Shown: positions 4,801 through 42,821, counted from the first letter of the whole stretch. The stretch is DNA of 51,298 nucleotides, filler included, from Bipalium vagum (GCA_037834085.1; 3 parts of 3 records of this genome joined end to end with filler, not necessarily neighbours in it), one strand, 5' to 3'. Made by a program: numbers and translations. Notes: generated from the sequence alone by a model not told the origin.

Positions 4801-6331
4801 AATAAGATGAATAATATAGTGTTAACAACTGATATCTTCTCAATTATTTTTGTGGTAGAGGTCACCACAAAATATCAAATTTATTCAACTTATAGAAAAA
4901 ATAGTGTCATAATTAATTGATGTTTTTGTTTTAACAAAACAGAATATTTATAAATATTTTTTACATTCTCAAAAGGTGGCTAATTTTAGTTCTGCTAAGG
5001 TTGATAACTAATGTCCTAGTTTTTCTTTTTACTACAAATGCTCTTTGTTTCCTCCTTTTAAGGACCTGGGGTGTCGAGAAAAAATTTATAGTAATAAATG
5101 TTACTATTTTTATTTACCAGTTTTTATAAGTAACGCTTATAATTTTTCAGTGTTTAAGTAACAAAAGTAGCTATTTCTAGTTTCGAATTTGTATAACTCG
5201 GTATTGATTTTTATAATTCTAAAACTGACTTTCTTTGAAAAATCGCCAATGTATTCCAATCCAGAGAACACATCATTAGTTAGATCATAAAAATTCCTTG
5301 ACACAAGTTCAAAAGACAGGACTATTCGATAGAAGCTTTTACTGTGTGTTTAGTGGATTTGTGAAGGAATGATTCATCACAGGTTTCTAAAAGTGAAAGA
5401 AATCATTACCACCCCGACATCTAGTACACTTAATTAGAAAGGACTCATGAAAAATTGTTGGAAATAATCTATCAGTTAACAGAAAGAAGATTCTCTTTCT
5501 TCTAGATAATGCACGGCCGCACCTGGAAAAACAAACTATGATACAAAATAACACAAATTGGTTGGGAAATCATGCGCCTGTCGTTTAAGAGAATAATTAA
5601 AGAATTACCCCGATATTTTCTCTGATTTCAATGAAAACCTTTTCTCTTTTGACATTGATAAGTGTAAAATGGTTTTAACTAATTAATCAATAATATTAAT
5701 AAAAATAAATAATAATATTTTAATAAACAATCCTATTTATGAAAATCGCAAAATCAATCGCTAAACAACAACAATCTTTGTGAGACCTCATGCAAATTAG
5801 TATGTTTTATGGCTATACCAGACTCTTGACATTTATGTTTTTTTAGGTTTTCCTTTTAAAACTAAATTCAGAATTATTCCCTATTCTTTTTCATAATTTC
5901 TGCACAATGATATTGAAATTAGATTATTTTTGTCTTAGCAACAGTTTACCTTTCTTACTCTAAATTTTTCTCTAAAGGTATCTTAAAGGATGGCTGGAGA
6001 AATGATCAACAGTTGGAAAATGTGTTCAAAAATGATGAAATGGAAACCATAGAAAAATTGAAGGAAATTCTGAAGAGTACTGAAAAACGTCAAATGTTGA
6101 TTTCAAGTATTTCCGATAATCTGTCTGGCGAAATTCACCAGTTCGACCAATTTCTCCTTAACATCGGTTCGATCTCGACAGCGAAACAGATCTCCGACTG
6201 TGGTACGTTCTTCTGTGATCGCAATCTCATGTCATGATTGTTTAGGTGATGGCGGTGACAGAAGAATGATTGATGAGACCATTGAAAGAATTTCAAAATT
6301 GAACAGCCAGATTAGCTTGATTGAAAACTGA
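1801..6331 (+). CDS. Coiled-coil protein of unidentified family, 5'-partial (last 6 exons)
   Basis: Phase-consistent GT-AG exons: 1801-2071, 3592-3671 (GLKSRKIGLEDAIKRARSNLEKETATF), 4443-4595, 4643-4702 or -4745, 5989 or 5978-6202, and 6246-6331 (TGA). Two introns are short (47 and 43 nt). The protein is E/K/L-rich with heptad character, and AATAAA follows at ~6363. No start exon was found. Confidence 0.75.
2189..2560 (-). mobile_element. Highly decayed Tc1/mariner-superfamily remnant (3' end)
   Basis: TA|CAGGGGGTATC TIR-like terminus. The minus-strand translation weakly resembles the WPPRSPDL...WGYLK region. Confidence 0.3.
3081..3340 (+). mobile_element. Mariner 5' end fragment (TIR and transposase N-terminus)
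   Basis: TATCAGGTTGGAAAGAAAGTC is a mariner-type TIR. It is followed by IRYCILYEFRSCSRAKEAYEKI, matching the mariner N-terminal HTH start (IRxxxLYEFxxG). Confidence 0.7.
5240..5580 (+). mobile_element. Mariner internal remnant, same family as 760-1396
   Basis: Direct nucleotide similarity to 880-1130 (TTGTGAAGGAAT.ATTCA.CA; AACAGAAAGAAGA..CT.TTTCTT) and the motif LLDNARPH. Confidence 0.75.
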
Positions 6332-17144: not shown

Positions 17145-17244
17145 NNNNNNNNNNNNNNNNNNNNNNNNNNNNNNNNNNNNNNNNNNNNTTAATTAATTAA
17201 NNNNNNNNNNNNNNNNNNNNNNNNNNNNNNNNNNNNNNNNNNNN
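17145..17244. other. Artificial assembly spacer (44 N + TTAATTAATTAA + 44 N)
   Basis: The 12-mer has stop codons in all six frames, and an identical spacer occurs at 34107-34206. Confidence 0.95.
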
Positions 17245-19475: not shown

Positions 19476-19900
19476 TTAGGTTTATGCATTGAAAGTGAGA
19501 CTTTTACAATTTTGTATCTTTGTTTAATAAGTAATATAAATATTAAATAACAAGAAAACGAAAATGATAATTTATTCAAAATATTTTCCATCGTTAATAA
19601 TTAATTTCTCCCATTTTCCAGGAAGCTCATAAATTCCTCTATACAAGAAATCGGCATTTTTTGTGGCTGTTCAATCAGTAGTCCATTTTTCAGCTTCCTC
19701 GAAGGATTGGAAGCACTTCTCAGAAAGTGAGTATGCCATCGACTGTAACAGATGGTAACCAGAAGAGACGCAGTCTGGTGAATAAGTTCCATCGGGTAGC
19801 ATTTCACATCGAAGCAACTCTAATAGTACCTGGACTCGTTTGTTGACCTGTCACCGGGCGTTGTCATGCAGGAAAATTACTTTATGCTGCCTTTTCTCAT
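19476..19900 (-). mobile_element. Mos1-like (mauritiana-type) mariner 3' half with TIR
   Basis: Minus strand reads EKRQHKVIFLHDNAR...TYSPDCVSSGYHLLQSMAYSLSEKCF...FLYRGIYELPGKWEK, closely following Mos1 motifs. The end is TA|TTAGGTT. Confidence 0.88.
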
Positions 19901-19903
19901 ATA

Positions 19904-19934
<31 letters not shown>

Positions 19935-19969
19935 TAACAGTGATAATGATAATAATACTACTACTACTA

Positions 19970-20042
<73 letters not shown>
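19901..20042. repeat. (AAT)n microsatellite with GAT/ACT variants
   Basis: Directly visible. It produces the spurious poly-N/poly-I ORF at 19840-20052. Confidence 0.95.
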
Positions 20043-20132
20043 TAATAATTAATTAATGTTCAAAACCATAATGATATTCTAATCAAATTTATCAGATAAT
20101 TAATGAAATTTTAATGATTATTAATGACTTAG

Positions 20133-23100
20133 CATTGGGAATTTAATGATGGGTCACCTCCACCGGCAGATATTTTGGAGAAATGGTTTCAGCTTCTCAA
20201 AGACCGATTCAATAGTCCCAATCATTCAAGTCGACCAATAGCCGTACATTGTATAGCTGGATTTGGTAGGTAAGCTGTAATAAAAAATTGGTTCACATTT
20301 TTCATTGATTTTCAATCCTAATCTTAATCTTCTCATAATTACCCTGTCTTATCCATTGATACATTTAAGCTGTCTTGTAATCCATCTGATCGGAAAAAGA
20401 TCGAATTAAAAATTTTCAATTATTATAATTATTAATTTCTTTTCTTATTATTATTTTAATAAATTATCATAATGATAATAATAATTTTTTTCATCTTTTA
20501 ATGTTTATTGGGAAATTTCTTTAAAAGAAAATTTCTTAAATAACATTCAAAATTATTATAACTTGATTATTTTTTAATTCTCTTCCAAATTCTAGTGTTT
20601 TTAATAAGAAGTTTGGATCTACAATTCAAATCGATTAAAAATTAAAATTTCATAAAATCATTACAGAAGAAATCGATTTTGTTATAATATTATTATTCTA
20701 TTGATCAGTTTTTGTTTCTAATTTCAACAATCGATAATATCTAACCAGTTAACCGACTGCTATTTCTTGTTTCATTTAGGGTGCTAATAAAATAAAATGA
20801 AAACGAAATAGAATTTCTTTATCCGGTTCTCTAATCTTATGAGTGATTGTTCCGTTTTACGCTTATTGTCTTTTGTAATATATAAAGAATGTTGCGACTT
20901 AGTTTTCTGATAAGAAGTCTCTTTTGATGTCGACGGTTTATTAACTTGTGAAAAAATATTTCGAACTCAAATTAGAATCTTATTGATAAGAATTGAAGTA
21001 TTTCTAAAATGTACTTTTGGCTCCAGCATTTCTTGATATTTTTCCAAGATATTATACAAAGGAAGCGGACTTTTTATCACTCCCTCTAATGTTTATTTTT
21101 TACTAATGACAACGCAATTATTTTATTATTTATTTAACGTTTTGCATACCCACGTCTCTAGTTTTCTTTATGTTCATTTATTTATTTTTGACATTTATCA
21201 ACATTGTGTTTGTTTATACTAATTGAAGGGTTTTCATGGAGTTTTGAACGATATAGTTGTACACGATATTGATAAAATTAAACTACATTGCAATTTTATG
21301 TCATTATTTCCAAAACCAAGTAAATTTTGTAATCGGGGTATGTAAAGGGGACTGTAAAAGTAATCTGAATTTTTTTCAAGAGAATTTAAAATATCTTTTT
21401 AAAATTTTTTTTATTATTTTCCTCTTTGAAAGAAAACTTATTTTTTAGACCAGTGATCTGAAATTTTGTAATATTAAATTAAATTTCACAATAATCAGAT
21501 TGACAATAAAACAAATTTTCTGGTGCACTATCCGTTTATTTTAATATAAATCAACTAGAGCCTCGAATTTCTGTGAACACTCACTTCAAAAATCAACCTA
21601 TTTAAGACAATTCTAAGAGTGTCTATGTTCACTAGAGATTATTTTATTTTCGACCATGTTGATTAATTTCTTTAATAATATATAATATACAATCGATAAA
21701 TGAATTTTTGTTTTTGATCGGGTCTCGGTGTTTAATAATCTTTAGTGGCAACACTAAATAATTTTTATTATTGCAGATATGGTCAAGGCGAAATTGATCA
21801 GACTCTAAGAAGTTACTGTGAAATGTGACATTTCACTTTTATTCTTTTGGAAATCATCATTCTCTCTTGTTTGTAGTAACTACATTGATTGGAGAATTAG
21901 CAGAGTCGAGTAAATTGCAAATAAAGTTATCTCTCTTTTAAAGAAATTAAAATTCATCTGGTCTTAACAGTCATTCATCTATCCTTTCAGTTTGCGAGTA
22001 TCAAAATCAAATTCTTTCCTTTAAAATATTTGAACTCGGAATTGAATCAGTAAAAATAAAATTATAGAATCTTAAGATATCATTCCATTATTATGTCTTA
22101 GTTTCTGGGCAAGAAAGGGGGATAATATATTAAAGAAAATTTTTTATAACAAGCGAACAAATTTAGACATAAATTGATTAGAAAAACTGATAGGAATAGT
22201 TCTGAGAGAAAGTCTTCCCGATAACCAGTGATTTAATGTCATCAATTTTATTTACAAAATTTAGTACATCCATTTCTTGACATTATTATTGCTATTATAC
22301 ATGTATATAATGCAATTATACAGTGAATGTTATTTTATTGATCAAACTTGCAAAATCTTTCTAATCCCAGTAATAAATGTGAATTACTTAGAGATTTGGA
22401 AGTGGCATTGAAACAAGTTTTCAATCCCAACTTTTGTATACTTAGATTAAGTGAAATTTTATTAAAACGAGAAATTTTTTGTGATTTATCAGTGATACTT
22501 GAAAGCACTAAACCAAAATACAAGTCCATTTTGTGATTATGCTGTCATTGATGTCAGATTATTTAGAAAAGCTACTTTGAAAATGTGATTTGATTTTTAA
22601 ACTGTTATTTATTTAATCTCTGACGACTTGCTTAGTTTTTATCGGAATCTCAATATTTTTAATGGTTTTTCGCTTATGGTAAACGTTAATTATTATTTAA
22701 TAGTTTCAAGTGGTAAGGAGAAATGCTGGGTTTTAAAAATTTCCAAGATTGCAGAGCGTAAAAAGAGAAATTTAGAATTAATCCCGTTTCATCTGTATTA
22801 AAAATATCTTTGTTACCATAACCTTTCCTAATTTCCGGCCATTCATTTTTAAGCCACGACGCCACCAATTCATTATTTACATCACCAGATTCTCCAGAAA
22901 TCGATCCGAAAACAAGAGAATGGCGAGTTTTAAAACGTTTAAAGAGAACTTTTACATTGAAAATTTTGGGAAAATGCCATTTTTGAACCAAAAAGTTCTG
23001 TTTACCCGATTTTGTTCTCTTTAAGCAAGTTCTCTATAAGCGAAATCTACTGTAATAATGAAATCTCAAGAGTAATAATTAATTAATTATCGGGTTGACC

Positions 23101-26100
23101 GACATGAAATGACGGGTTTTAATTTTATGTCAAAGATTTGGGAATCAATACATTTTTATGATAATAAATGTTTTAATATATCAAACTGAGGCACCAATTT
23201 CCCTTTTTCATATAATTGAAAGTAAGCAGTTCAATTTAAAATTACATGTTATCTTTTGCATCTTCTAGGACATGGTTGAACAACACATTCGAATTTGTAC
23301 TCTTTATGAAATCAAGCTTTATCACAGTACATCAGAGACACTAGAAATTTAATTTTTGATGGTATAATGATTCTATAAGCGAAGGATCACACAGAGATAT
23401 TTTTAGAAATTTAAGAGGTAACATGCTACTGTCGTAAGTAACAATTGGTTGAAAGCAACACGAAAAAACCGGTTGGAGAACTAACTGAAGAATTGAGTTT
23501 CAATAAGTCAACCATTTCCCGGAATTTTCAAAAGCTCGATAAATGGATACTACACCAAATAAATGATAAGTGAGAAAATAGACATTATCCATTCTTGTCT
23601 AGAATTGTAACCTATGACGAGAAGTTGGTCTTATTAAACAATAGTTATGATCAATACAATGGTTGGATGCTGATGAAAAACTGAAACATGTGCCTAAGCA
23701 AAGCCTTCGCCCAAAGAAGACTATGATCACTGTTTGGTTGTCTGCATCTGGATTAATTCACTATAACTTTCTAACATCTGGTGAATCTATCACAGCTCAG
23801 TCATACTTCAAAGAAATTGAAGTAGTGCACCAAACATTGATTGGAAATAAACTGGAACTTTTTATTAGAATTGCACCGATTTTATTCCAAAAAATGGAAA
23901 ACCATGTGATTCTAGATTAGAGGCACAAAAGTTTGAAGTACGAAGTTTTACCTCAGCCAGCTTATTCACCAGAATTCTATCCATCAGATTATGTTATGTT
24001 CAAACATATATGGTTACATCTCTGAACAATAGTATGTTTCGGAACCAGGGTAATATTAAAAATGTTATTCTTGAGTTTTTTGAAATCAGAAATTTTGATT
24101 TCTGTAAAAAGAGGATTTATGATTTGTCTCGATGACCGAAGTGTATTGAAATCAATGGAAGATATTCTATTGAATTAAATGTTTAATAGCGCTTTGATTA
24201 ATTTAAGTTACATTTTAAAAATCCTCATTTCATGTGGAGCAACCGGGTAATTAATTATAAATATTTGGACTGTTGGACGATCCCGCCAAACATGGATCTA
24301 ATTTTATTTTCTTTTTTTAATTGTTCCAACTGTTGCTTTATTAATCATTAATTTTTTTGTAATAGACGATGGTATCTACCCTTTTTTGATGGAATTTGGA
24401 ATATTAATCTGTTCTTCATTGAAAATCAGCTGAAGAAACTTTCTGCATGCAGAAAATGAATAACAGCCCTTTGTTTTTCTTTGGTGCAATTTTTTAAAAC
24501 AGGCTCTATGTTTTTATTCTAAAATTGATATAAAAATATTCCTTTAATCAATATTTCGTATTTTATTGTAGCAAACAAGTTAATACGTATTATGATTTTG
24601 CTGCTTATCTATGATAAAAATCAAAAGCTTTGTATCTTTACTTTTTGATTCATCCACGTAAATTAAAATAAGATTCATTCGATTCAACAAATTTTTAGCA
24701 ACAATAGAATAGTTTTTTATGACATTAAAGTAAAATTCTGTTGTTATGGAGGCGATGAAATCATTAAAGGTATTTTAGGCGTCATCTGGGTTGCTAAATT
24801 ATTTATTTCTTAAGAAATCTTCACACTTATTTCTTACTTTTCATATTACCTTCCAAAAATAATAACCATGTAATCTAAAATTAAGTAATGGTGAAATACT
24901 CACAAAAACATATTGGAAATCAAACACTTTAAAATGATATAGGATATAAATTAAAATAATATCAAGGTTAAGTCAAAATAACGTAAAATAAATAATATTT
25001 CTAGAAACCGACATTAATTGTCCACAGCATACTATATTGTTACATTAGAAAAGTTCCTTCTACATTTTACCCTTTGTATTTTTATATTTAAATAAAAATC
25101 ATGTAAAAATATATTAATTCAAAAAACATTAAGCAAATATTTACCTTCAATTCAAAATAATCCACAATTTCCCACGAGTTTTTTTTATATTTCTTTGATT
25201 CTCTCTTTGAAAAGTCTTGATTTTACTTAAAAGAGGTTGCCTCTAAGAATAAATTACCTCTAAAAATACTGCCTTTTTATAATTCTTTATTTATTATTCA
25301 TCATCTTTTAAAATGATTAAATATAATACTTTTATGGTTCAAAAACAGCTTATCATTCAAAAGATTCAATTATCGATTAGACAAAAGTCAGAGTTGAATT
25401 ACAATATTCACAATTAAATATTAAGCATATGTGTAGCTGAAAGGCAGAATTTTAATTTACTAGAATAATAATTATAATTGTAAAATCGATTGATAAGTGT
25501 TTTTTACATAGTTAAAACGGTAAAGTGCTGATTATATATCTGAAGTTATTTTGTGAAGGGCTTGTAAGGATTGAATGTATAACATTAATCTGTTTGTTTC
25601 AAAATAGTAAAGATCGCCAAAAATGTGTTTGAAAGTCAAACAATGTAATTACAATTGATTTAAATTAAAATTTAACCTGTATAGGTGTAGATGGAATTGG
25701 AGAATTTTTAATAAAAGAAGGGATCATGAATGTCCTGAGGTTTGTTAAAATACTCCAAGATAATTTTTAAAAAGTTTGGAGAAATTATGAATTGAAAAAC
25801 TTTATTTGTTTCAACAGGATAATGATTTGAAGCTTATTGATAAAAAAATCAAGGAGTTTTTGTTATATAAGGCCAGAAAAATTGTGGTCTTTTTAGGAAA
25901 GAAAATTTGCCAAAAGAGATTTTCATCTCGAAAAGAGCTAATTGAGGGTTTGATGAAATCATGGTCAGCAATAACATTTGAAACTACAAAATCTTTAGTG
26001 GAATCAATGCCTAGAAGACTTCAGCCCATAATTAATAATAATGGATTGCACACAAAGTAGGTTTCAAAAATGTCTCTTTCTTTTCAAAAGTTAAATGTGT

Positions 26101-29100
26101 ACGAATGCTTTTTTCCAAATGGAATTTATAGTTTTACAATTTTTTATGGAAACTATTTGAAATAAATAAAAATTTTGTATTTCTTATTTATTTTCGTTGC
26201 TTTTCTATTGGTTTGTGCGAAAACCTAAAAAATTCAGATAATAAAACAAGTTTTGGCTTACAAAGTGAAGTGTACGAATACCTTTTTCATCACTATATTT
26301 ACCAAATACTTTTAGTGTATTGGTGTTTATAAAAAGTGAAATGTCTCTTTGGTGGACAGGGAATTAAGGAAAATGTGTGAGTGCCAAGACGCACCACTAT
26401 ATTACGAAGATCCTCGAAGGAAGAAATTTCATTAAGGTAACTCTGATATAAGACATTCAAGAAGCTTTGAAGTACATAAAGAGACGAATAAGCCTACTGA
26501 TGCATGAAGAAGATGCATGAGTTAGTGAATAAAATACTTACACACACTGAGGAGAAAATAAATAAGAAAAGCAAATTATGAACAAGTAATAATAATGTTA
26601 GAGAAGTGGACAACTGAAATGGAGTTCATAGTTACAGAGAGAATTACTGAGTAAGAAGGATCCAAAATTTACTGACAAGGTCACTCATGTTTTTGTTTTT
26701 ACTTCTCGTTTTCTTCCCAGACTAACTTAAAGCTAATCGATTATTAATCATATTTTTAAATTTTCCTATAACATTTTCTTAACGAATCTATGAATCATTA
26801 GTCAAATATCTTCAGGGCACCAGTCTTAGTGGCCGTGGCTCTCATGGAGCTGGGAATGCATTGTGAAGATGCAATTGAACTGATACGCAGGTAATTAATT
26901 TTTTTCCGTAATATTAAAAATTTCTTACAAAGCTCAAATTCTTTTTTTGCATTGATTTTTCACAAAATATTTATACTGAATTTAAAAAGCTTAAATTTTA
27001 TTTTAAATGATTATCTGACATAAATTATAATTTTTACTTTTACCAATATTTTTTTTGGAAAGTTAAATACTTACTTACATTGCATTATTAAATTTTATTC
27101 AATATTATTTTTCGATTCAGTATTCAACTTTAATTCAAATTAATTTTTTTGGTTCGCCAAAGGCACGACTCTGATGGACCGCAGTAAAGGCTGAACGATA
27201 AAATAATAATAATTATAATAATAATATAATATTAATAATTATAAAAGAACTTCTTAATTAATAATACTAATTTTATAATAATAGAATTAATTATAGAAAA
27301 ATAATCAAATTTTAACGTCTATTATTAATGGGTTCCTATAGTTTTTTAGTGTGTTTCCCGCGCATAAACATTAGTGGTCGTTGCCCAATATATATAAGAC
27401 TAAGTCCTCGACGAACTGAGGCAAAAAAGAGAATTATCTTTGAAAAATTATTTGTTGAAGAATCTCTAAGTTTTGTCAAGTTCATTTTAGTCTGAAGTAT
27501 TTCCAGGTGTTTGTCAAATGCTTATTTCCAATATTAGATATGATTACATAACTGGTCCGTTCGAGCTCAGGAATATGTGTGAGGTATTTGTTTTTGGAGT
27601 TTGATTGTTGAGTGATTGTGAAAATTGTTGACATAATTTAAGGGTGTACCTTCAGATATTATTCAATAAAAGTATTAGTTTTGTTTTATTTTGTGAGCTC
27701 AGGAATGAGACTTAACCCAAGGTAACTTCATTTAGTTTAGGTGTGTTAAGGGTTTGGTTGGCCTACTGGAGATCTGATTGAATACTCCATTTATCTTGAA
27801 GATGAGGTTTTGTAAAATAACGCCATTTAATTATCCATTTCAGTAACGAGTCTCATTTTCTCCAGGTAATTGATGCATTGCTCGCATTTATTTATAAAAT
27901 TTTAAAATGAATAATTAAGAGAATGGTTGCTAGTATGATGATAAAATCAAAGACAGGACAATGGTTGATTGGTAAAATTCTATCAGGTATTATAACATCA
28001 GTAGATGTTTGATTGTGAAAAATGATTAATCTTAAACACAATTTTTGATAAAATAATAATTGTTTTATTTCCATTTTAGCATATTTCCAATTAATAACAA
28101 ATCAAATTCTTCAACAAAAATGGAAATTATCAGACCAAGTATTCCACCGGCAACAATTACCCTACCGGCATTCGTACTAATGGACGAAAAGGAGATCCTA
28201 AGAATTAAAGAAAAGGCGGAGCTGAATTTACCATTACTTTGTATGGTAAACATCAGCGAAGCCGAAGAAAAGGATATCAAGGCAAAGTTGGATTACACCA
28301 ACCAATTGAAGATGGGGATCAAATATTTCCAAGGAGTTACCGTAATCACCAATAAATTAAAACATGCCAGGATAGAGGATATAGGCACCTGATATGTGCT
28401 AGGAAAGGAATCTTAGGATTGAGCCTAACCGAGTTAGCTCAATATTGTAGGTCCGCAGTGAAATTACAGATTACCTGCATGGACCAGGCCCAAATAATTG
28501 AGAAAGGAGCAGGTATCACTGCTGGACTAATGGTTCCAGGGAGCAGTTATGCAAAAGTCATTCTGCCCGGATCTCTTATCCCAGAAGTAATTATCGTAGC
28601 AGCTGGAAACCTGCTAATCGATATAATAAGGGAGTCCGATGAAGATTGGGAACTGAGGGAACATCCAAACCATAATTGGCCCATAATCTCATTAGGAGCA
28701 AAAGTCATTCTACCCGGATCTCTTATCCCAGAAGTAATTATCGTAGCAGCTGGAAACCTGCTAATCGATATAATAAGGGAGTCTGATGAAGATTGGGAAC
28801 TGAGGGAACATCCAAACCCTAATTGGCCCATAATTCCATTAAGAGCCTGGTAGAAGAAAGAGGCTTATGTGGATCCGAGTCTCTCCCAACTTGAACAAGA
28901 AAAGAAAGTTTTAATTTTGGATATTAGAACTTGAATCACCAGGTTCTCCAATCGAAAGGCACCTTTGGTGGCGACAATAGTTACGCCAGAAGGTAGCCTA
29001 ATCCATCAAGCTATAATTACTCCCAGAGCTCTAGTGTCGATGAGCACGAAATGGATGAGAACAAAGTTTTTGGCCAATTGGACGAGTACCAGAATAGAAC

Positions 29101-31406
29101 TCTCGTCCAAAACTACATAGAAGGAAAAATAGTAGTTGAGTACGACATACCATATATGCTGGATGCCGTCGCCATACATCGATCATGAATCAGAGATGTC
29201 CGCAATCTGGCAACGATTCCCTTGGCCAGGTTATATAAACGGATCAACTCCAGAAGTAATGGGACATTTCCACTGTCTGCCATAGCACAAGAGTATGGTC
29301 AATACAAAATGGCAAGACAAAGAGGGAAATTTATCCCAACAGCAGACGCATATATTATTAAAAGAATATGGGTCTACGTCAGGGACAGATGGTATGAGTA
29401 AGAAGAAAAGGAAGAAAGAAAAAGACCAAAACCAGAAGAACCCAAGGAAAAGACTCCATCAAAAACAATATTACAGGAAGAAGAAATAGCTACAGGATGT
29501 TCAAATTTGACAAGAATAATTGTTAACACCCTGCACAAGAGTGTAACGGAAAAGGAAGAAAAGGCAAAGGAGCCAGAAAGGAATTCGTTAAGAATGCCCA
29601 GTCTTACAGTAGTACTACCGACGGACATCGACGCTACATCCAGTCGACAAAGGAACCACGGTAGTGAAAACCAGAGAACACTGGAATTGGGATGCAAGTA
29701 GCACGGGTGGCATTACGGAGGAGGACAAACCAAGAAGGAAGGTTCATGGTGAAAGAGTCACAGTGATAATACCATAACGGACATCAAGATTAGGGTCAAT
29801 GAAAAGACCAAGGAAATCCGAAACACCAGTAGAAGTGAGGGAAACCGAAGTAAGCAGAAACCCCACGGATAAACCTAGAAGAACGTATCAAGACACTGGT
29901 CAATAAGGCAATCGATGATAACATCGAAAATATCAAACTCAGATGAAAAGAAGATTACTAAATGAAGAACAAAAAACAGCAACAGAACCAAACTGGGACC
30001 AAGAGCTTGGATATCGGGATAAAATATCATTAATGGAAGAAGAAGATGTCCCAAGCCAGATCAAGTTCAGCTGCAGGACAAAAAAGTCAAAAATATAGAG
30101 ATCTTTAGTTCACTAGAAGAACTAACTGATCTCTTGAAAAAAATTGAATGGGAATATATCCGGGTAAAGAGAAGCGGCAAGCGGTATAATTTAATCAATG
30201 GCAATCTACCAAACCGAGAGAAGAAACATACCAACCCAACTACAACCAATGCAGAGACAACGGCAACCAATCCAATGCCGCCGACGACGGATGAGCCGAA
30301 GAAGACGAAGAAGAAGCAACCGGAACTCATAATTTTGGACTACTGACATTCTATTCTTTTGTGATCCATTTTGACAATCATATTCTTGACATCTTATTAA
30401 CATCTAATTGATATCTTTGTTGTTATTGTTGTTTATTTTTATTAACTAATAAATTTTAGTAAATGTATTTTTTAGGAATGTTGTTTATCACCGGATTATG
30501 ATAATTTTATTTTTGCTGACCAAGTTTTCCCCTGGCAGTATAGGTAGCAGTATAGTAGATTTATTTTGTTGAACATAGTAAAATTTGTATAATAATCCAC
30601 CGACATATTAATAAGGTGACATAATAACGAGATTTGACTGTATTAGAAAGTCAATAACATTTACTAACTTGTACACTAATTACTAAAAAAACTAATAATT
30701 TTTTGAAATTTCCGAATTTTAATTTTAAAAATTTATTTAATATCGATTTTTTGTATAGCGATAATAAGTAAAAATAAAAATTGAATTTACGAGTTTTAAA
30801 ATTGGTGTAATGTAAGTTTTTGACTTTGGTAATGCACCCTAGAAGCAGAATTATAGAAAGAATGCATCATGAAATACTTCGTATGGACAGCAATAGAATC
30901 TCATCAAGTTCTTTTGGATTCGTGCCTTTAAATTCATTTAATTATAATCAGTAATTTTTTGATCCAAACATGAACCCACCTACCAATGCTTAGTTATCCT
31001 TTGGGACCATTTAATGGAACATCCCACTGGAAACTAAAATTTTTTAAATTGAACCGACTTGGTTACACTTACACAGATCTTCTCGTTTAGAAATCTTTTT
31101 AATAATTTCTTGTCATATTCATGAACCGATAGATAAACATAACTAATTTATGTATCAACTTAATTGGGATTTTGAAAAGATAATTTTTAAACAAAATTAT
31201 TGCAACAAAGACACGATTGAAATATATAACGAAACAAAAAATTATGGAAAAACTATAAAATTATTAAAGAATTTATTTTATGCAAATAAATGTTATTTTT
31301 TTTCAGCAAACGCAAGGGATCATTCAATGAACGTCAGATATCTTACCTCACTCACTATCGACCAAAATCGCGACTAAAGCAGTCGAAAAAATGCTTAATA
31401 ATATAA
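20133..31406 (+). CDS. PTP4A: Phosphatase of regenerating liver (PRL/PTP4A), 5'-partial (last 3 exons)
   Basis: Exons: 20133-20269 (HWEFNDGSPPP...IAVHCIAGFGR), 26816-26890 (APVLVAVALMELGMHCEDAIELIR) and 31307-31406 (KRKGSFNERQISYLTHYRPKSRLKQSKKCLII*). Junctions are GT-AG and phase-consistent. The P-loop CX5R-A, polybasic region and CaaX box are PRL hallmarks. The N-terminal exons are not in this piece. Confidence 0.93.
22770..23052 (-). mobile_element. pogo/Tigger (CENP-B-like) transposon remnant
   Basis: FKRFKTRHSLVFGSISGESGDV...W...YGNKDIFNTDETGL, with a TA|CAGTAGATTTCGCTTATAGAG TIR at 23052. Confidence 0.85.
23090..24247 (+). mobile_element. Near full-length degenerate mariner (cecropia/Hsmar1-like) with both TIRs
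   Basis: TIRs TCGGGTTGACCGACATGAAATGACGG and (reverse complement) CCCGGTTGCTCCACATGAAATGAGG are both TA-flanked. Translation gives RIVTYDEK, WLDADEKLKHVPKQSLRPKKTMITVWLSASGLIHYNFLTSGESITAQSY and AYSPEFYPSDY, with many disablements. Confidence 0.92.
25680..26298 (+). mobile_element. Tc1-like remnant, 3' half with IR/DR-type end
   Basis: FQQDND...SMPRRLQPIINNNGLHTK*. The motif GTGTACGAAT.C.TTTTT occurs at ~26097 and ~26270, the latter ending CACTATA. Confidence 0.8.
28120..30346 (+). pseudogene. Disabled ~740-codon ORF with a DEDDh (REX4/ISG20-like) exonuclease-fold domain and K/E/T/P-rich tail
   Basis: Joining frames across stops and frameshifts gives KKVLILDIRT...LVATIVTPEGSLIHQAIITP...VQNYIEGKIVVEYDIPYMLDAVAIH...IRDVRNLAT...FPLSAIAQEY...FIPTADAYIIKRIW (28900-29370). 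These blocks are collinear with ExoI/II/III of REX4-like nucleases. Confidence 0.6.
28551..28844 (+). repeat. 147-bp in-frame tandem duplication (2 copies)
   Basis: Copies start at 28551 and 28698 and differ at about 6 positions. Confidence 0.97.
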
Positions 31407-33169
31407 GAGTATTGTTTTTAAAAAATGTCCTAAAGTCTTTTGCTGTCTCCTTGGCATTATAATAATTATTGCATAACAGAGACAAATCTTGTTCACGAGG
31501 GCTTGCAGATATAAATATATATACAAAGAAAAAATATTTACATTGATTGATCATTAATGAACCGTTAAATATGATAGCTTAATACGTGACATATGATGTC
31601 ATAAAAAATTTTCAAAGCATGTAAAAATTTGTAAGAAAGTCCCGAGAAATTTCTAACAAAAATATCGATAAATTTTTAATTAAAAATAAAATTTATATTC
31701 TTTTTATGATTTGTGACAAGAAATTTCGACGGTATTGTTTTGAAAAACAACTTTATATTATATATTGATTTTTATAACGATATTTTTTCAATATTATTTT
31801 TAAAAATTGATTGTTCTGTTAATACGTATTGATTTTTAAATTTTAATTTTTTGTCATCAATGTTTTAATGAATTTTTTGATTTAAAATGCCAGTGAAACA
31901 GTCCAATGGACGAAAGATAGATCAATTTATTTTGATCTCGGTATATTTATATAATATATCATTATAAATATATGTGAAAAAATTATCTGTTTTTGTATTT
32001 CAATTATCTGATCTATAAGTATTTTTAATATATTCGACGAAATCAACTTCTATTATGTAATTGATTTTATTTTTTTAGTATTTTATAAAAGAAAAACAGA
32101 TTATATCTGAAAATTTTCACATTATGAGGAAAATGTCATTATAATATAATTAAAAGACCATAATTTGAGTTAAAGTTGATCGTAATAATCAAACCCTGGC
32201 CTAACTCGTTATTTGTATTGGTTATATGATTAGTATGAAAAATAAGATTTATTTATTTATTTAAGGCATATTTATCAATAATAAAACGAACTAAAGTTAT
32301 ACAACACATCAAATATCATTTCAAAATTAGGTACCCTTCTTAGAAAGGTCTTGATCAATTGTCATAAGAATAATATTTTTAATTATAGAAATATTCCTAA
32401 AAACAGAATAAAGTATAATAATTATCATGGAGAAATAAGACAAAATAAACCTTGTCTTAATAAAATTTTTTTAAGCTTAAATAGATATTTGAAAAAATGA
32501 AGATATAATAAGCATCTGGATGGAAAAATTTAATTTTCATTAGATTTTTCATTAATTTTAATGAATTTAATTTTGTGATGGATTAAATTGAAAAAATTAA
32601 AGATATTTTTTTGATTTTAATCATAAAATTCAAATTTTAAAATTTAATTTTATTAAATAAAAAATGTTTTAATTGGAAAAATTAAGATCTTTATGAGTAC
32701 AAGAAAGTTTTTCAAAAATAAATAAGATTGATTATTGCCAATATATTTTTCAAGAAATTAAAACTAAATAATTTATTATGAATATGAAATAAAATCAGAA
32801 AATTTTAATATTTATATAAAATGGTTAAAATATTCAAACATTGTTGATTTTATTATTCTTTTATTTTATTTAAATTTAATTTATATCTATAAATTTTTCA
32901 TAAAACATGATGTAGATTGGCCACAAAAATTTAAAATCTATTTTAATTTGCACATTTATTTTATTATACATGTAGTTATAAACATGTTTTTAAAGGCCGT
33001 AAACCATATGTTTGATTTAAATTTTGATAATTTATAATTTTAAAAATTTTACTTAATATGCTTAACTTTTACTTACTTTCATTTAAGCTTCTGAAGAAAA
33101 TTCTAAATATTCTGCTTCTACATCAAAATCAGTAATTTTATTCCTTTTGAAAAAGAATGGCTAGTGAAG

Positions 33170-33910
33170 ACAAAACTCAACCATAAATTTTATGCACCAT
33201 AATAAACAAATAATAAATTTGTTACTATTATACTAAAACGTAGCAAACGTGTGTTCGTCTGCTCGTGACTCCTCACTTTTTATAACTCGTGTTCTTAGTT
33301 CCTCTCAACCTTTTGGAATTTAAAACACCCTCCAAAATACTGTATCCGCACCCTTAAGAACCAATTCAAAATACTTAAAATAAAACTTTATTTGCAACAA
33401 TTACAACTTCTAAATCAAAACCAGAACGTTACCAATAAAATAAAAATCAAGCTTAACGTTAATACTAAAAAAAACGATCAAAGTAAAAATTAATAATAAT
33501 AACTTAAACGAGAAATAAATAAAAGTATTGATCTCACCAAGAGCGACAAGGGGTCCCCGGGTCACCCTCTAGGCCCTTCTCAGGCAGTCTAGGGGTTCCC
33601 AAGCTCGCTGGATCCCCTTGTAAAAAAACCCGCTGCATCATCAACAGAGAAATAAAATGATTACTGGGTTCGTCTTCGTTTAGTTGCTTTTCGGCTTTTT
33701 CTAGCCATTACCGGGAATAGCCGTCTTCTTTTATATTCTTAGAGATTGGTCTACGATCACCAATCCCTACGCTCAGAGAAGTCTATTTTCCCTAATAGCC
33801 ACTCACTATCTCTACGCCGAGATAGTCTCTTGTCGAGGCTAATGGATTCCTGTCAGGAAATCCATTTGCCTGATCTCATGAAAAATCCTCAAGGCAGGAT
33901 TTTGCCATTA
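33170..33910 (-). mobile_element. LTR-like module with hairpin array (unclassified)
   Basis: On the minus strand, in order: hairpin array, CCAAT, TATAAAAG (~33735-33728), GC-rich stem-loop, then AATAAA (33392-33387) and a T-rich tract. The inverted repeats are directly visible; the element class is inferred. Confidence 0.45.
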
Positions 33911-34106
33911 AAAATTTATAAAAAATATTTTCTTTAAAGAAAAATTTTATTATCATTATTATTAATTAAAATCATTCTTCCAAAATCATTATTATTAGTA
34001 TTATTATTCAATGATTATTGTTATTATTCTTAAGTCTCTTAAAATTGGAGCTAAAACTAAGAGCTTAACGGGTAGAAGGTTATTTTTATGCGTGAACGAA
34101 ATATGA

Positions 34107-34206
34107 NNNNNNNNNNNNNNNNNNNNNNNNNNNNNNNNNNNNNNNNNNNNTTAATTAATTAANNNNNNNNNNNNNNNNNNNNNNNNNNNNNNNNNNNNNN
34201 NNNNNN
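34107..34206. other. Artificial assembly spacer (44 N + TTAATTAATTAA + 44 N)
   Basis: Identical to 17145-17244. Confidence 0.95.

Positions 34207-40454: not shown

Positions 40455-42821
<2,367 letters not shown>

Follow-up and report, generated by a model that had tools for sequence, protein, structure and literature searches.

A decayed, self-contained gene with foreign-looking codon use in a PRL intron of Bipalium vagum, tentatively linked to a mobile element

In a stretch of DNA from Bipalium vagum (GCA_037834085.1; 51,298 nucleotides, filler included, three parts of three records joined end to end), referred to below as the window, the last intron of a gene for PRL, which we take to be a PTP4A-type phosphatase, houses a block of about 3.3 kb. 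This block is a real, dead and self-contained protein gene with foreign-looking codon use. On a reading that is offered here tentatively, it may have been an accessory gene of a non-autonomous DNA-type element and may have encoded an inactive, nucleic-acid-binding protein with a REX4-like DEDDh fold. The protein is not placeable in any family tested, and the block is probably an orphan gene of mobile origin.

The block had been described in an initial annotation as a set of fragmentary open reading frames (ORFs) that join into one ancestral frame of about 740 codons. An unguided frame-path search, which used general amino-acid frequencies only, yielded a path of 739 codons from the ATG at 28120 to the stop at 30346 (30344-30346). 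All the peptides quoted in that annotation are present. The path contains five internal stops (28851, 28932, 29186, 29399 and 29775) and six frameshifts (near 28387, 29034, 29633, 29853, 29941 and 30054), and was identical under three penalty settings. Its score of 22.6 was reached by none of 40 shuffles (mean -64, standard deviation 13) and compares with -37.5 on the reverse strand, while the coding signal in every third of the path was better than in 60 of 60 shuffles. The five stops in frame correspond to about 5-7% substitution since the death of the frame (range 2-16%).

The composition of the frame differs from that of its surroundings. The GC content at third codon positions (GC3) is 0.36-0.48 in six segments of the block frame as compared to 0.20-0.31 in four host segments, which indicates that the block gene evolved under a codon bias other than the one usual in the host. 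Outside the block, the window is AT-rich animal DNA (GC 0.16-0.37), and the block has the highest GC content of the window. The elevated GC content that had been ascribed to the entire block applies to the 2.2-kb coding part (0.41), but not to the leader (0.30) or the 3' untranslated region (UTR; 0.21). The strand that carries the frame is strongly A-rich, with an AT skew of 0.40 at 29001-30000. The N-terminal domain, previously given as about 240 amino acids, is present but includes a 147-bp in-frame tandem duplication (49 codons, 28551-28846, 96% identical, six differences) that had been missed; without it, the N-terminal region comprises about 210 amino acids and the whole frame about 690 codons. 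The parts of the frame are:

28120..28900, plus strand: N-terminal region that matched no known fold, about 210 amino acids without the duplication, with the frameshift near 28387 and the stop at 28851 (coding signal reached by 0 of 60 shuffles)
28551..28846, plus strand: in-frame 147-bp tandem duplication of 49 codons (six differences between the copies)
28911..29371, plus strand: putative REX4-like DEDDh-fold domain, likely a pseudonuclease, with stops at 28932 and 29186 and one frameshift between about 29000 and 29050 (profile and shuffle tests)
29372..30346, plus strand: charged, A-rich low-complexity tail of about 320 codons with basic clusters, two stops and four frameshifts, ending ELIILDY (coding signal reached by 0 of 60 shuffles)

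Judged from its sequence, the region 28911-29371 quite likely adopts a REX4-type DEDDh fold. A REX4 profile was built from 55 of 117 metagenome loci, the other 62 being left out as intron-split or partial. Among 1020 six-frame chunks of the window, this profile ranked the block locus first, at 12.2 bits, followed by 3.0 bits for the next unrelated chunk. A 120-residue piece that covers ExoII-III scored 10.3 bits, a value reached by none of 5000 shuffles, and disjoint halves of the profile gave 12.8 and 8.2 bits. When natural decoys were used, 11 of 627 windows outscored the block piece, those displayed being later exons of REX4 genes, while none of the remaining 616 exceeded 5.6 bits. A frameshift-aware alignment of the full domain again found no better locus in the window than the block. 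With a penalty on N-gaps, which otherwise scored as artefacts, none of 1500 codon shuffles matched it (z 5.1, fitted p ~8e-4); in the version without this penalty, none of 300 column-shuffled models did. In the profile alignment, for which no register was supplied, six blocks keep their order and spacing, with D28920 on the ExoI Asp and D29345 on the ExoIII Asp, i.e., the two catalytic positions that had been proposed as intact. Furthermore, the alignments of both disjoint half-profiles and of a DnaQ profile end at 29371. The register of the earlier proposal, by which the blocks follow ExoI-III of REX4/ISG20-like DEDDh enzymes, is upheld, with none of 5000 and none of 1500 shuffles reaching the scores; the resemblance is weak, at 10-12 bits and with no database or structure match.

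Other by-eye assignments were discarded. A dUTPase-like N-terminal domain, based on motif spacing, scored -1.7 bits to a profile of 116 viral dUTPases, where 168 of 3000 shuffles reach 0 bits, and was rejected; as this idea failed the same kind of test, the method does reject. An SGNH/GDSL-like N-terminal domain found no support in Pfam.

If the REX4 homology is right, the ancestral protein was probably already a pseudonuclease, where the initial annotation had allowed for either a nuclease or a pseudonuclease. In the profile register, the ExoI D-x-E motif retains D28920 and has R in place of Glu at 28926, although this half of the alignment is weak; M occupies the ExoII Asp position (29156), and the ExoIII H-x4-D motif has F at 29330 with D29345 kept. 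The distance to any catalytic codon is two bases at the ExoI Glu, three at the ExoII Asp and two at the ExoIII His. The probability of two hits in one codon rises from 0.01 at 6% decay to 0.05 at 13%, and that of losing both Glu and His by decay is 1e-4 to 2e-3, even with the Asp at 29162 taken as the ExoII residue. That these two codons are each two bases off at about 6% decay suggests that the ancestor was non-catalytic. Animal DEDD pseudonucleases bind RNA (PMC8097288, PMC7968707).

The frame is preceded and followed by what looks like the remainder of a transcription unit:

27385..27398, plus strand: putative core promoter, a TATA-like run (27389) with abutting CCAAT (27385) (sequence; motif frequency not above chance)
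27421..28079, plus strand: G+T-rich leader, likely a multi-intron 5' leader, with four AG/GTA donors and acceptors at 27655, 27843 and 28079 (donor excess)
30347..30460, plus strand: T-rich 3' UTR (T 0.53) with AATAAA at 30448 (composition, sequence)

The donor-like sites annotated at 27584, 27722 and 27866 are all present, together with a fourth at 27987. The motif AGGTA thus occurs four times, as compared to 0.6 expected (3 of 1000 dinucleotide shuffles), and once only on the minus strand of the leader; this excess and strand bias favor real introns. A 12-mer is repeated in the leader at 27563 and 27695, which was reached in 32 of 500 shuffles. In the simplest three-intron model of the leader, 4 of 13 upstream ATGs would survive; one of these, at 27705, shares the frame of the ORF provided that its exon is joined to 28080. 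The acceptor at 28079, the ATG, the final stop and the AATAAA are all found where they had been annotated. The promoter is less distinct than proposed: both motifs exist, but the CCAAT abuts the TATA run rather than forming a separate upstream box, and each is expected about once per 820 nucleotides here (AATAAA 2.5 times). The leader had also been called LTR-like, i.e., similar to a long terminal repeat (LTR), to which the data lend no support, as the flanks share no direct repeat and the leader does not recur at the right end. The AATAAA at 30448 is not followed by a poly(A) tail (longest A run 7 up to 30700). Just past this signal, a 9-bp sequence is directly repeated across a 3-bp spacer (30535-30555), possibly as the footprint of an excision.

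The position of the block within the host gene is as annotated. The PRL exons at 20148-20269, 26816-26890 and 31307-31406 join by splicing to an open PRL C-terminus that ends in CLII, and the block lies inside the last PRL intron (26891-31306, 4416 bp), on the same strand as PRL. The features of the intron margins and flanks are:

26816..26890, plus strand: second-last PRL exon of the host (in-frame splicing with 20148-20269 and 31307-31406)
27145..27330, plus strand: a 53-bp GC-rich island (GC 0.51), then an (AAT)n-like tract (tandem array 27198-27289); element left end or unrelated truncated tail of a long interspersed nuclear element (LINE) (zone composition)
27161..27171, plus strand: candidate left inverted end, 10/11 with 30917-30927, preceded by CCAA (best inverted match between the flanks)
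30917..30931, plus strand: candidate right inverted end (30917-30927) abutting TTAA (30928-30931) (not significant alone)
31307..31406, plus strand: last coding PRL exon of the host, with the CAAX-type end CLII (splice-joined translation)

Splicing of the exon end at 26890 to the acceptor at 28079/28080 would lead in frame into the dead ORF, with the CAAX end of PRL being replaced; this is a one-in-three coincidence unless reads show it.

None of the terminal structures tested coincides with the outer limits given for the block (27140 and 30460). The left inverted arm falls in the island where the composition changes; the island and its (AAT)n tract may just as well be a separate LINE tail. 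A hammerhead-like reading of 27145-27197 was without support in Rfam, which gave one chance match and no hammerhead over 26500-34200, and a shared end with the (AAT)n tracts at 19901 and 33930-34050 turned out to be a likeness of low complexity only. No direct repeats are paired between the flanks, where the best direct match was reached by 89 of 100 shuffles. As to the mode of movement, the retained donor-rich leader introns and the lack of a poly(A) tail, both contrary to what defines a LINE-processed retrocopy, argue against LINE-type retroposition. A retroelement body is argued against by the absence of paired LTRs and gag/pol remnants, which define LTR retrotransposons, and of a hammerhead (Rfam, 26500-34200) and reverse transcriptase (RT) match; Penelope-like elements and Terminons are defined by a hammerhead ribozyme and an Athena-type RT. 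With the arenavirus nucleoprotein (see below) also argued against, movement at the DNA level is left. Here, the candidate ends are a hint of Kolobok-like ends, i.e., a lead rather than membership, as Kolobok elements have TTAA duplications on both sides, whereas TTAA is found on the right and CCAA on the left.

A number of results weigh against a mobile gene for a REX4-like pseudonuclease. As regards the fold, the full-domain alignment has a negative absolute score (-14 bits), the ExoI half alone was reached by 23 of 300 shuffles and is not significant, and the E-value to REX4, a family picked by eye, is 2.3e-5 in a single comparison, which multiplied by 24,736 Pfam families becomes about 0.6. 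The block piece scores 2.4 bits to a profile of giant-virus REX4 proteins and 0.9 bits to the phage DnaQ profile (7 of 67 ORFs passing a motif filter), where in full-domain mode 5 of 400 shuffles match it and the locus is outside the window's top four. With the dUTPase profile, one shuffle in 3000 attained 14 bits, which shows that scores of this size arise by chance. In checks of the kind suggested in the initial annotation (HHpred or structure prediction), hhalign with four sequences returned 0.4% and 0.2%, and single-sequence models of the domain halves (pLDDT, the predicted local distance difference test score, 40 and 32) were too poor to judge and had no Foldseek match. The Asp at 29162, two residues past the aligned ExoII position, could be the true ExoII residue. 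As regards relatives, Pfam returned no family for 11 block pieces, including RT, integrase, transposase, gag and Maelstrom/Exuperantia/EXD1 (the absence of RT, integrase and transposase had been noted before), and NCBIfam (six pieces) and the PDB sequences gave no match. No relative was found among 1.84 billion representative proteins, in a 5.8-billion protein search covering longer proteins only, or in viral contigs (three scans), a metagenome and prokaryote genomes; in the Atlas, the best value for two pieces, 0.81, is below recognition. As regards mobility, 13 of 100 shuffles attained the score of the inverted ends (27161-27171/30917-30927), and the left one is preceded by CCAA instead of TTAA. 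Neither flank has a long frame or transposase remnant, and the window holds no second copy, leaving one available. In addition, a phage search gave five chance matches (E 6), and a look-up of sequencing runs by block words gave a single match (X1, 0.54 of the words), with no RNA run among the matches.

Exonuclease cargo in mobile elements is known from several systems. KolobokD DNA transposons, found in molluscs, arthropods and cnidarians, carry an accessory DEDDh nuclease, and Kolobok ends are of the type RR..YY with TTAA duplications (PMC9587614). The candidate right end of the block fits this pattern, whereas the left flank is CCAA and the end match is not significant. The KolobokD nucleases, compared by description only, resemble TREX, Exuperantia and ERI1 (PMC9587614), not REX4, and the block is without a transposase, which in Kolobok elements is of the DDD/E type. 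Dada DNA transposons carry a DEDDy nuclease (PMC3706591), and together with ORF3 of the bdelloid Vesta/Juno elements and the Terminon nucleases (PMC5408684, PMC6431247) they are examples of cargo exonucleases of unproven function. All of these are DEDDy enzymes with catalytic residues kept, located beside an RT or inside a transposase, none of which is seen in the block; the bdelloid parallel drawn earlier is therefore inexact, as those nucleases are DEDDy, not DEDDh (PMC5408684).

REX4 is the sole profile that recognized the block domain, with block order, spacing and both the ExoI and ExoIII Asp residues in register. Yet the block scores about 10 bits and true members about 130 on the same stretch, and the domain is without the ExoI Glu, the ExoIII His and probably the ExoII Asp. 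Human REXO4 has a disordered N-terminus and a near-terminal domain (PMC11741406), while the long charged part of the block protein is C-terminal. The animal proteins Maelstrom, Exuperantia and EXD1, which have DEDD folds, have lost catalytic residues and bind RNA (PMC8097288, PMC7968707), serve as a working model for the block protein. In contrast, they are conserved host genes, the ECHC zinc site of Maelstrom is absent from the block, and Pfam gave no match to them. In the arenavirus nucleoprotein, a DEDDh domain follows an N-terminal domain, as in the block. This exonuclease is active, zinc-binding and C-terminal, whereas the block has no Cys in the domain, a tail of 320 codons behind it and a leader of spliced type, so that the arenaviral analogy of the initial annotation is not supported.

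These comparisons bear on four other explanations. An origin as the spliced accessory ORF of a retroelement (LTR or Penelope-like) whose remainder was lost is unlikely. The A-rich skew of the frame's strand (0.40 at 29001-30000) would suit such an origin, and Penelope-like elements keep introns. Shared accessory nuclease ORFs have been described, i.e., the DEDDy ORF3s of bdelloid Vesta/Juno and Terminons (PMC5408684, PMC6431247), but these have intact catalytic residues (PMC5408684) and the match here is to REX4-type DEDDh enzymes; furthermore, paired direct repeats between the flanks, a hammerhead or other Rfam match (26500-34200) and RT, gag or integrase (Pfam, 11 pieces) are missing. An unlikely outcome, too, is that the gene is real and mobile while its DEDD likeness reflects a coincidence of a generic alpha/beta pattern in a protein of another kind. 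Such a coincidence would be in line with 10-12 bits that are not significant after correction for the number of families, three of five defining residues absent, a weak DnaQ profile, the one dUTPase shuffle in 3000 at 14 bits, uninformative single-sequence models and the lack of a Foldseek match; it does not readily account for six blocks in order and spacing with both remaining Asp residues in register in an unguided alignment, nor for the fact that the alignments of the DnaQ profile and of both disjoint halves of the REX4 profile end together at 29371.

It is rather improbable that the block is a pseudogene which ordinary duplication copied from a host family specific to the lineage, e.g., one of fast-evolving, REX-derived pseudonucleases in the germline RNA machinery. 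The anatomy is fully gene-like with host-style splice sites, the element ends are not significant, and the host cdc-48 protein is also absent from the searched protein collection, so missing relatives may reflect sampling. Against this, the GC3 of the block is about twice that of the host. A decayed copy of an ordinary host REXO4 gene, the case that the initial annotation had named as incompatible with its proposal, is excluded by score: 27 held-out REX4 genes retain at least 50.9 bits at 13% random decay, as compared to 12.8 for the block, and scores as low as that require 30-40% decay. Finally, it is very unlikely that the gene belonged to an endogenous virus, despite its foreign codon use and REX4-like enzymes encoded on giant-virus contigs (5 of 31 loci; 1144 proteins in a wider search, hosts not shown). 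The block piece scores 10.3 bits to the cellular REX4 profile and only 2.4 bits to the viral one, three scans gave no match to a viral contig, and genes of RNA viruses or giant viruses do not usually have a leader of spliceosomal type. A zinc site is present in the arenaviral domain (PMC7968707), whereas the block domain has no Cys. The viral contigs concerned (L002, L012, L014, L030 and L031, up to 466 kb, one being a giant-virus bin) encode intact REX4-like exonucleases, with the 1144 relatives found at E up to 0.001.

The wider window contains further features. At 33200-34050 on the minus strand, a second GC-richer island adjoins an (AAT)n-like tract. It contains CCAAT and TATA-like motifs as well as a T-rich stretch, has neither a long frame nor an alignable likeness to the block, and is possibly another element end or a solo repeat. 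A transposase remnant at 19620-20049 (minus strand, by-eye reading), which we take to be mariner-like, ends at an (AAT)n tract, some 150 bp long, that lies immediately upstream of a PRL exon. Decayed transposon remnants at 844-1124 and 5296-5578 are 71% identical to each other, and with others at about 23560-24150 and at 22689-23033 they are presumably Tc1/mariner- and pogo-like. Neighboring genes, as we recognize them from their sequences, are presumably tropomodulin, an intronless cdc-48 and a cathepsin; cdc-48/p97 (40509-42818) is one exon of 770 codons, whereas other genes of the genome carry long introns. Identical gap structures at 17145-17244 and 34107-34206 (44 N, a 12-base palindrome, 44 N) are likely assembly scaffolding marks.

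In the proposed accessory gene of a DNA-type element, the single long ancestral frame, broken 11 times at about 5-7% substitution, is the starting point. Transcription by RNA polymerase II would begin from the TATA at 27389, the multi-intron leader would be spliced to 28080, and the mRNA would end at the AATAAA at 30448. The copy would have moved as DNA, as suggested by the retained leader introns and the lack of a poly(A) tail and paired LTRs, with a transposase supplied by another copy and 27161-30927 as the best candidate for its ends. Instead of cutting the element's RNA or DNA ends, the protein may have bound them via a dead exonuclease cleft and the basic tail, by analogy with Maelstrom, Exuperantia and EXD1 acting on RNA, and its most likely role would be to protect transcripts or intermediates of the element against 3' trimming or silencing by the host. 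A more specific version, highly doubtful at present, is an undescribed family of small Kolobok-like DNA elements (about 3.8 kb) with inverted ends, the sole gene of which is an intron-led, REX4-derived pseudonuclease that would shield the RNA of the family from silencing as a mimic of Maelstrom/EXD1-type factors.

Among the described cases compared, exonuclease cargo is either DEDDy or TREX/ERI1-like DEDDh, with catalytic residues kept where stated, and exonuclease cargo in mobile elements is as such already known. No REX4-like pseudonuclease in a transposon was found in the literature searched, with most subscription journals and Repbase outside the search. At present, with one dead copy, a weak fold assignment and no defined ends, the block is of value mainly as a search seed. 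If the proposal is true, a REX4-derived cargo that lost catalysis yet was under selection would suggest that mobile elements recruit nuclease folds as RNA-binding shields, and a selected pseudonuclease of an element would be a testable anti-silencing candidate.

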